Origin: a virus
Taxonomy: Duplodnaviria; Heunggongvirae; Uroviricota; Caudoviricetes
Length of the DNA: 12,015 bases
Strand: one strand, 5' to 3'
Virus record (IMG/VR): IMGVR_UViG_2703718843_000006
Part shown: positions 7,779-8,055 of the stretch, piece after piece
How the letters are laid out: each line of letters starts with the position of its first letter
Position numbering within the stretch: position 1 is the first letter of the stretch
Position numbers and translations under genes: made by a program
The notes under the pieces: generated by a model
What the model was told of the DNA's origin: nothing
Databases searched by the model: none
What the model saw: only the letters and a program-made list of their open reading frames with translations

Positions 7779-7851
7779 ATGCCCGATTTGTGTTCCAGCA
7801 CAGGTTGGGCATTGTTTTTTGTAGCTTTGATGTTTATAATGGTAATTACCA
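7779..7851 (+). promoter_or_regulatory. Control region: sigma70-like promoter (-35 TTGTTT 7812-7817, -10 TATAAT 7835-7840) with operator-like palindromes
   Basis: 17-bp spacer between the hexamers. Perfect 12-bp palindrome TGGTAATTACCA (7840-7851) overlaps the -10 and predicted start site. Imperfect 34-bp inverted repeat ATGCCC...GGGCAT (7779-7812) lies upstream. Sits between the plus-strand RHH-like ORF and the leftward operon start (7748). Confidence 0.45.
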
Positions 7852-7881
7852 TGTAGGTTAATATAAGGTCTGGTCATCACC

Positions 7882-8055
7882 ATGTCAACACCAAAAGAAA
7901 AACGTTCTCCGCCTTTCCAGATGCGTCTTACAGATGAGTTCCGCCGACAGCTTGAAGACGAAATGCGCAAAGATGGAGATTCAGCTCTTGCATCTTGGAT
8001 CAAGCGAATTCTGCGTAAAGAACTACTGAATCGTGGCATCGATCCTAAGAATTGA
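7882..8055 (+). CDS. Small ribbon-helix-helix (Arc/MetJ-like) DNA-binding protein candidate (57 aa), putative repressor
   Basis: Not in the ORF track (below 60 aa). ATG 7882, TGA 8053-8055. Translation MSTPKEKRSPPFQMRLTDEFRRQLEDEMRKDGDSALASWIKRILRKELLNRGIDPKN has the basic N-terminus, short beta-strand (FQMRL) and two helices expected of RHH proteins. Preceded by the promoter and palindrome above. The overlapping minus-strand ORF is Ser/Arg-rich and looks non-coding. Confidence 0.5.
   Translation: MSTPKEKRSPPFQMRLTDEFRRQLEDEMRKDGDSALASWIKRILRKELLNRGIDPKN

Follow-up and report, generated by a model that had tools for sequence, protein, structure and literature searches.

A small Arc-like protein gene, paired palindromes and a candidate antisense RNA make up a putative control cassette in a P4-like satellite of Escherichia coli

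Introduction

The 12,015-nt stretch of viral DNA analysed here (IMG/VR record IMGVR_UViG_2703718843_000006, hereafter the window) is a P4-like satellite prophage of Escherichia coli AH21, whose chromosome it matches exactly over all 901 bases compared (positions 7500-8400). Every gene of the window lies on the minus strand except a 57-codon open reading frame (ORF), here named rhh, which is located between a gene for an Icd-like cell division inhibitor (icd), at the head of an operon running leftward to a primase gene, and a gene for an AlpA/Vis-like regulator (alpA). The region from 7708 to 8085 is probably the control cassette of this satellite (Table 1). Comparison of sequences suggests that it likely associates an Arc-like repressor and two operators placed on the early promoter of the operon with an antisense RNA of the type of P22 sar, and that it is exchanged as a unit between related elements. 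P4 serves as the textbook example of a phage satellite, and the immunity of the whole family is usually modelled on its RNA-based system. A preliminary description of the locus had viewed the small ORF as a ribbon-helix-helix (RHH)-like, autoregulated repressor gene, and its claims are taken up below where the corresponding results are given.

Table 1. Annotated, predicted and candidate features of the control cassette and of its two flanking genes, in window coordinates
Feature	Position	Strand	Details
icd, Icd-like (Kil-like) cell division inhibitor gene	7572..7748	-	NCBIfam phage_ICD_like, 84 bits; heads the leftward operon
Candidate antisense-RNA promoter	7708..7735	+	-35 TTGATC 7708-7713, 16-nt spacer, -10 TACACT 7730-7735
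Candidate cis-antisense small RNA against the icd translation start	7742..7821	+	stem-loop 1 (SL1) and terminator stem-loop 2 (SL2), ~80 nt
SL1	7744..7775	+	stem covers the icd start codon; loop ACCUCAUAC is an anti-Shine-Dalgarno sequence, complement of the icd Shine-Dalgarno
SL2, terminator hairpin	7778..7813	+	followed by a U-run, 7815-7820
P_rhh, rightward rhh promoter	7812..7840	+	-35 TTGTTT 7812-7817, 17-nt spacer, -10 TATAAT 7835-7840
O1, candidate operator TGGTAATTACCA	7840..7851	.	perfect 12-bp palindrome, TGGT-N4-ACCA
P_L, leftward early promoter of the icd-to-primase operon	7860..7888	-	-35 TTGACA 7888-7883, 17-nt spacer, -10 TATATT 7865-7860
O2, candidate operator TGGTCATCACCA	7871..7882	.	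same core as O1, TGGT-N4-ACCA
rhh, 57-aa predicted Arc-like RHH protein (MSTPKEKRSPPFQMRLTDEF...)	7882..8055	+	ATG ORF; RefSeq CDS WP_166783744.1
GC-rich hairpin past the rhh stop codon	8066..8085	+	terminator-like site between convergent rhh and alpA
alpA, AlpA/Vis-like regulator gene	8105..8320	-	Pfam Phage_AlpA, 29.2 bits; convergent with rhh; right edge of the cassette

A conserved small gene with Arc-like features

The 57-codon ORF with its ATG start is present as first described, although it was not missing from annotation, RefSeq already listing its product as a hypothetical protein. The preliminary description had made its proposal depend on conservation of this ORF, and conservation is indeed found. 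A sequence search identified 44 clusters of homologues, nearly all of 57 aa, in Salmonella, Erwinia, Pantoea, Citrobacter, Enterobacter, Yersinia, Serratia, Xenorhabdus and Arsenophonus, while a scan of one genome per species yielded 63 rhh loci and widened the range to Pasteurellales, Aeromonadales (Oceanisphaera, Oceanimonas) and Gilliamella. The homologues span four orders of Gammaproteobacteria (Enterobacterales, Pasteurellales, Aeromonadales and Orbales). The family is small, only 41 relatives having been returned when 1.8 billion representative proteins were scanned in full with HMMER. Among 28 distinct 57-codon sequences, the median ratio of non-synonymous to synonymous substitution rates (dN/dS) is 0.12 and the third codon position is the most variable, with 33, 23 and 52 of 56 columns varying at positions 1, 2 and 3, respectively. 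Furthermore, the frame is unbroken in every locus analysed. Judged by these patterns of variation, rhh is a real, conserved coding gene.

The RHH-like character noticed in the preliminary description, which had called for a profile comparison, is supported by that comparison, and the rhh protein can be assigned with moderate confidence to the Arc-type RHH proteins. When the rhh family (A4) was aligned by hhalign to an Arc family alignment, the probability was 71.7% (E value 3.5e-5, 48 columns), a moderate support as both profiles are shallow and of low diversity. In this alignment, family residues 4-53 are placed on Arc residues 3-50, with the SPxFQMR motif (PxFxxR) on the Arc strand MPQFNLR (PQFNLR) and DGD-S on the Arc turn ENG-RS. 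A comparison with single Arc and Mnt sequences had given the right register at a probability of only 7-9%, and it was redone with the Arc family alignment. In addition, 19 of the 28 family members matched PHROG 228 'Arc-like repressor' (best E value 9.6e-7) and five gave sub-threshold matches to Arc (PF03869; best E value 0.0018); HicB, RHH_5, Arc and RHH_1 are included in the weak Pfam matches obtained when the 28 members were scanned singly.

The AlphaFold2 (AF2) model of the monomer, with a predicted local distance difference test (pLDDT) score of 73.5, has helices at residues 18-31 and 33-50 after an extended N-terminus. It is compatible with an RHH subunit whose strand would form only in the dimer. 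Structure searches with this monomer were uninformative. Profile searches of the PDB returned only designed helical repeats and, with a wider profile, RHH proteins (AmrZ, a CopG-family regulator and HP0222) only at E values of ~0.5, neither result being decisive.

Two facing promoters and a pair of palindromes

P_L matches the consensus at 11 of 12 positions, is the top site of a promoter consensus scan and has a predicted start at ~7853. Its -35 hexamer overlaps the rhh ATG, and this arrangement, with a TTGACA matching the consensus at 6/6 positions from ATG+2 to +7, a spacer of 17-18 nt and a -10, is kept in ~45 of 56 distinct loci. P_rhh, with a predicted start at ~7847, has a perfect -10 and a weak -35. 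It was not called by the consensus scan because its TTGTTT matches the consensus at only 3 of 6 positions, and the near-consensus promoter initially attributed to the ORF does not hold in that form. The pattern TTGTTT-17-TA[CAT]AAT recurs in relatives at an equal distance from the ATG. Moreover, the promoters are not divergent as had been stated: P_L and P_rhh face each other, their predicted starts being ~6 bp apart.

The perfect 12-bp palindrome reported as overlapped by the -10 of the ORF promoter was found again as O1, which the TATAAT of P_rhh abuts and overlaps at position 7840. A 12-bp palindrome alone is not beyond chance, as four are seen in the window against 2.8 expected. The O1 palindrome extends to 14 bp (ATGGTAATTACCAT, 7839-7852) and is the only perfect palindrome of this length in the window, against 0.6 expected. 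O1 covers approximately +3 to +14 of P_L as well as the start of P_rhh and the last base of its -10, and most listed loci of class A have a palindrome of the same kind ~43 nt 5' of the ATG. A second site, O2, had been overlooked. It is a direct repeat of O1, 31 bp apart, which occupies the -35-proximal 12 nt of the P_L spacer and ends on the first base of the rhh ATG, so that O1 and O2 bracket the P_L -10. TGGTNNNNACCA has exactly two matches in the window, namely O1 and O2, against 0.14 expected. The layout recurs in relatives, with a palindrome ~43 nt 5' of the ATG, a second one ending at the ATG and a leftward -10 between them; relatives carry GGTAATTACC at the O2 position, and the variant present in the window is also found in the abundant P0001 lineage.

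From these positions, P_L rather than the promoter of rhh itself would be the main target of repression, a point absent from the preliminary description. The autoregulated repressor-operator layout proposed there stands in part: an operator does overlap P_rhh, which makes autoregulation plausible, but the second operator would be the site at 7871-7882 and not the 34-bp palindrome that had been put forward.

The same geometry lends itself to another scheme. In P22, Mnt represses P_ant and thereby favours P_mnt. The rhh protein could likewise act as a promoter-choice switch, the shut-off of P_L relieving interference on P_rhh with net self-activation as the outcome. This is an unlikely scheme, to which the facing promoters with starts ~6 bp apart, the much greater strength of P_L and the annotated geometry of P22 immI, where the Mnt operator lies within an overlapping promoter pair, nevertheless lend some substance. 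On the other hand, the position of O1 over the start and the -10 edge of P_rhh by itself predicts repression, and the weaker match of O2 in the window is hard to square with a selective shut-off of P_L. Repression of P_L together with damping of P_rhh is the reading we prefer.

A candidate antisense RNA at the icd start

The plus strand at 7742-7821 specifies a candidate cis-antisense small RNA directed against the translation start of icd, the expression of which we infer from the sequence features that follow. It covers both the icd Shine-Dalgarno (GAGG, complement of 7757-7760) and the icd ATG (7748-7746), and its candidate promoter sits within the first icd codons, on the opposite strand. 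A TAnnnT exactly 7 nt 5' of the AGCCAT start-codon box is present in 94% of 34 distinct loci, other offsets giving at most 18%, and loci without the antisense -35 have a TG-extended -10 instead.

The folding of this RNA is strand-specific. The 79-nt plus-strand RNA has a predicted energy of -30.5 kcal/mol (z score -4.98) against -16.3 kcal/mol (z score -0.57) for its complement. Since the minus strand folds like shuffled sequences, we rejected the view that the hairpin is primarily a leader structure of the leftward mRNA. When RNAalifold was applied to 31 diverse loci, the terminator stem was recovered; 10 of its pairs had changed on both sides, and many were G-U pairs, which are valid on the plus strand only, being C-A mismatches on the other. 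Stem pairing is seen in 95.9% of cells; shuffles gave 85.3% and slid controls 35-47%, and none of 500 shuffles reached the observed values. SL1 is more stable on the plus strand in 30 of the 31 loci, displays the anti-Shine-Dalgarno loop in 29 of them and has G-U as 22% of its pairs. A covariance model of the motif (R1) gave 20 matches, all on the plus (rhh) strand and 18 of them outside the sequences used to build it. The window holds one copy, and R1 has no match in P4 or in P22 immI. Rfam gave no match to the candidate RNA in the window. Overall, the antisense-RNA motif is conserved in ~50 loci across four orders.

These data bear on the 34-bp palindrome, which had been described as a second operator. 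The repeat is present at 7779-7812 as an imperfect inverted repeat (arms of 14 nt, gap of 6 nt) with UUGUUUUUU after it on the plus strand, but it appears to be an RNA terminator and not a protein site. We discarded the protein operator because the sequence is not conserved while its pairing is, with G-U pairs that fit the plus strand only and a U-run after the stem.

Candidate operators and RHH proteins change together

In the relatives compared, an element never combines sites of two types, and the operator type varies with the residues that form and precede the predicted beta-strand. Thus, operator TGGTAATTACCA occurs with the N-terminal motif KRSP[PQ][FY]QMRL, TTGTAATTACAA with KTDQYQ[IL]RL, GGTATATACC with KRSPQFPMRL and TGTGTAATTACACA with RRGNPPFQFRL.

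A natural swap is seen between the window and E. coli MARGA_4. Through icd (6900-7750) and again in alpA (8144-8340), no 50-nt bin falls below 88% identity and most reach 90-100%, but the two are only ~50% identical over 7800-7994. At the protein level, Icd is identical, AlpA 92% identical and primase 97% identical. AlpA is 92% identical between the window and locus L002, though their cassettes differ. Between the window and MARGA_4, the change is limited to the small gene and the palindromes, which switched together; this is the pattern of an immunity cassette.

This pattern also helps to judge whether the palindromes are bound by another factor (AlpA/Vis, a helper Cox or Ogr, or a host protein), the RHH protein being then an antitoxin-like partner of Icd or an accessory of excision. 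Such an attribution, which we regard as quite unlikely, has some basis. Binding of the palindromes by the RHH protein is itself deduced from sequence, AlpA/Vis proteins regulate promoters in P4, as Vis does, and RHH domains are common in antitoxins; weak matches to HicB and MazE occur in some family members, one of which is named HicB-like by the Joint Genome Institute. Nonetheless, AlpA or any other factor is disfavoured as ligand because rhh and the palindromes switch together while AlpA, Icd and primase are near-constant. In addition, four loci with unrelated alpA-side DNA (L076 and L004-L006) carry the same class of RHH protein and the same operator. As for an antitoxin role, no co-directional toxin gene accompanies rhh, which is the sole gene between P_rhh and the hairpin at 8066-8085. 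It is monocistronic with both neighbours on the other strand, unlike an antitoxin gene co-transcribed with an adjacent toxin gene. The rhh protein is, in our view, the better candidate for the ligand of O1 and O2.

Some Photorhabdus elements (L027 and L029-L032) have two paralogous rhh copies, 1.2 kb apart on the same strand (~1780-1943 and ~3001-3159), while L033 has a single one. The upstream copy has a TTG start and GGTATATACC-type sites, and in L027, where it was searched, the antisense-RNA motif is found at each copy. These double copies may correspond to tandem modules or to tandem elements.

Genetic context and other cassettes in E. coli

The satellite is inserted at a tRNA-Arg gene (10936-11007, minus strand) and flanked by dsdC and yfdC. 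Besides icd and alpA, the minus strand encodes an ATP-binding protein, a Delta/Ogr zinc finger protein, a Psu-like protein, a TOPRIM/DUF927 primase (3855-6527), a DUF5375 protein, two hypothetical proteins, a 324-aa hypothetical protein and an integrase. The Icd-like protein has 54% identity to the P4 kil region. The GC-rich hairpin past the rhh stop codon, which MARGA_4 keeps at the equivalent position, is probably the rhh terminator and would close the rhh unit. Two genes of the element lie away from the cassette, one for the 663-aa ATP-binding protein (1-1992, minus strand) at the psu/delta end and the other for the 324-aa protein (8428-9402, minus strand) between alpA and the integrase gene. 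The latter protein has a weak PHROG match and its gene varies among otherwise similar elements. Either protein could be satellite defence cargo.

Among 5426 complete genomes of E. coli, 333 possess the icd-type region of the window. Many of these match the window only as far as 7801, as do 17 of 30 rows when the hit ranking is sampled evenly. One such element, examined in E. coli ESY001 (L075, 2750-3122), encodes a different small protein, which is a true member of the YlcI/YnfO family (NF041551, 65.7 bits for a cut-off of 30) and represents the commonest E. coli variant. Its gene is preceded by three direct repeats of TGAATCGCAC, and the cassette likewise follows a copy of the antisense-RNA motif, whose hairpin has no U-run after it in this element. 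It looks like a third, unrelated type of cassette, and the repeats hint that YlcI/YnfO proteins bind DNA.

In related satellites of E. coli, RefSeq gives the name YlcI/YnfO (NF041551; DUF3950) to the ORFs found at this position. NF041551 has no match to the window protein, and the MARGA_4 protein, 60% identical to the latter, scores 20.7 bits, below the cut-off of 30. One survey lists YlcI/YnfO only as 'prophage-associated protein' (PMC13612085). In the literature searched, ORFs at this position are treated only as accessory 'prophage-associated' genes, and we found neither a described protein repressor in P4-like satellites nor a function for YlcI/YnfO.

Discussion

The arrangement of the cassette suggests a mechanism with two layers of control, which we consider likely overall. 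Dimers of the 57-aa Arc/Mnt-like repressor would bind the two TGGT-N4-ACCA palindromes, whose spacing of 31 bp is about three helical turns. With O2 in the spacer near the P_L -35 and O1 just past the start, their occupancy would shut off the icd-to-primase operon, that is replication and host killing, and would keep the satellite quiescent. The repressor would also limit its own synthesis through O1, which lies over the -10 edge and the start of P_rhh. Operon shut-off and damped self-synthesis both follow, in this scheme, from O1 and O2 sitting on P_L and O1 sitting also on P_rhh. As a second layer, the ~80-nt antisense RNA, from its promoter within the icd start and with its anti-Shine-Dalgarno loop and terminator hairpin, would block translation of icd on transcripts that escape repression.

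Several points weigh against this mechanism. The window protein itself has no match in Pfam at E values up to 10, and thus stays short of the Arc threshold, nor in NCBIfam, and the profiles behind the Arc assignment are shallow, as mentioned above. In the window, O2 departs from the family consensus at two positions, and each palindrome may bind one dimer or two. The Shine-Dalgarno of rhh in the window (AAGG, 13 nt from the ATG) is poorly placed compared with the AGGG at 8 nt of its relatives. Homologues of the KTDQYQIRL type in Pantoea allii and P. ananatis (L058, L059) come without recognisable palindromes. These two loci also lack the conserved leftward promoter and the RNA motif, and may represent a different context or have decayed. 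Finally, the rhh cassette is not a simple replacement of RNA immunity because one element, L028, stacks both (see below).

There is very little to commend the idea that rhh is no functional element and that its conservation comes from a minus-strand frame or a non-coding RNA. The minus-strand frame at 7572-8147 (191 codons) is continuous with icd and crosses the whole of rhh in antisense. Of 28 relatives, 21 keep it open, with a dN/dS of 0.28, and it reaches 473 codons in L028. A comparable long frame in P4 was once annotated as 'cI protein', and phage records still give it the label 'transcriptional repressor'. However, it is broken by stops in 7 of the 28 relatives, whereas the plus frame is intact everywhere analysed, has the lowest dN/dS and varies mostly at third positions; the low dN/dS of the minus frame is expected if third positions coincide, as the inferred register has it. 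The location of P_L inside the long frame also leaves its upstream half off the P_L transcript. Furthermore, the P4 precedent is a recognised misannotation, P4 cI being an RNA (Rfam C4 match). We rejected the minus frame as a gene because of these stops and of the lower dN/dS of the plus frame, and we read it as a shadow frame, with wobble positions that would coincide with those of rhh.

With rhh taken as a repressor gene, a wider proposal can be formulated. Lysogeny in a large class of P4-like satellites and related integrative elements may depend on the rhh protein as its master repressor. These elements would carry exchangeable heteroimmune cassettes with an undescribed sar-like RNA, and their helpers would have to inactivate or bypass a protein repressor, as for Stl of the Staphylococcus aureus pathogenicity islands (SaPIs), instead of following the P4 CI RNA route. 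This proposal is conceivable but still doubtful. Should it be true, the elements present in 333 of 5426 E. coli genomes and their relatives in four orders would be silenced by a small Arc-like protein of swappable specificity together with an antisense RNA. The helper induction signal would then be a protein able to remove the repressor, or transcription reading through from the side of alpA. The uncharacterised YlcI/YnfO-like proteins would gain a testable function, the conserved small-RNA motif would be new to Rfam and the short orthogonal repressor-operator pairs could serve as tools.

Comparison with known systems

P4 shares with the window both the position of the control region, between vis/alpA and the Icd/Kil-like gene, and the controlled operon, which ends in primase. 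In P4, the space from vis (ORF88) to kil/icd holds on the operon strand C4, which is the CI immunity RNA (74.9 bits), an isrK-like RNA (60.8 bits) and c4-a1b1 target sites, but no rhh homologue and no plus-strand ORF at this position. The same search gave no match to C4, isrK or c4-a1b1 in the window at E values up to 1, and the window leader of ~105 nt is too short for the P4 RNAs. While P4 immunity relies on RNA, the window has a predicted pair of protein operators and a candidate cis-antisense RNA from the opposite strand. Among 12 relatives scanned for P4-type RNAs, 11 were without them, the exception being L028 from Pasteurella testudinis (2507-3171), in which rhh, its palindromes and the antisense-RNA motif are all placed upstream of an icd gene and of RNAs of the isrK-like and C4-family types; at the gathering threshold, C4 and isrK matched and c4-a1b1 did not. 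Pasteurella phage Pmp8 (L068) has rhh and the antisense-RNA motif and no C4 or isrK match. Its Rfam int-alpA RNA (7933-7998, minus strand, 46 bits) has no equivalent match in the window. The preliminary description had anticipated a switch unlike the RNA immunity of P4, and this is right insofar as the window is devoid of the P4 RNAs and P4 of rhh. As a contrast of RNA and protein it is too simple, because an antisense RNA candidate belongs to the cassette and L028 possesses both modules.

In the immI region of P1/P7, an icd-type gene heads an operon that is restrained post-transcriptionally by a small RNA occluding a ribosome-binding site. The window resembles it in having an icd-type operon head under a putative small RNA. 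The P1 c4 RNA is a processing product of the same transcript, with a1/b1 sites as its targets in trans, whereas the candidate of the window would be a true countertranscript, to which a putative protein repressor is added.

The nearest known design appears to be that of P22 immI. Its arrangement, an RHH gene opposite the operon with the operator within overlapping promoters, is found in the window with a different geometry. Both systems have a small RHH repressor, of the Arc/Mnt type and putative in the window, encoded opposite the operon it controls or would control, and symmetric operators (candidate ones in the window) in or next to a strong promoter that overlaps the promoter of the repressor. 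They differ in that the P22 promoters stand back to back and share the same 34 bp whereas those of the window are face to face, in that P22 has two RHH repressors (Mnt and Arc) and the window one, and in the controlled genes, which are the antirepressor gene ant in P22 and the icd-to-primase genes of a satellite here. In the window, no Rfam match to sar (RF00262) was obtained at E values up to 1, while P22 gave 97.8 bits. The likeness nevertheless extends to an antisense RNA of ~70-80 nt which runs from the start codon of the downstream gene over its ribosome-binding site. P22 sar (68 nt, 532-599) lies just before the ant ATG at 600, and the candidate RNA of the window starts at the icd ATG, which makes it an analogue of sar in design and not a homologue.

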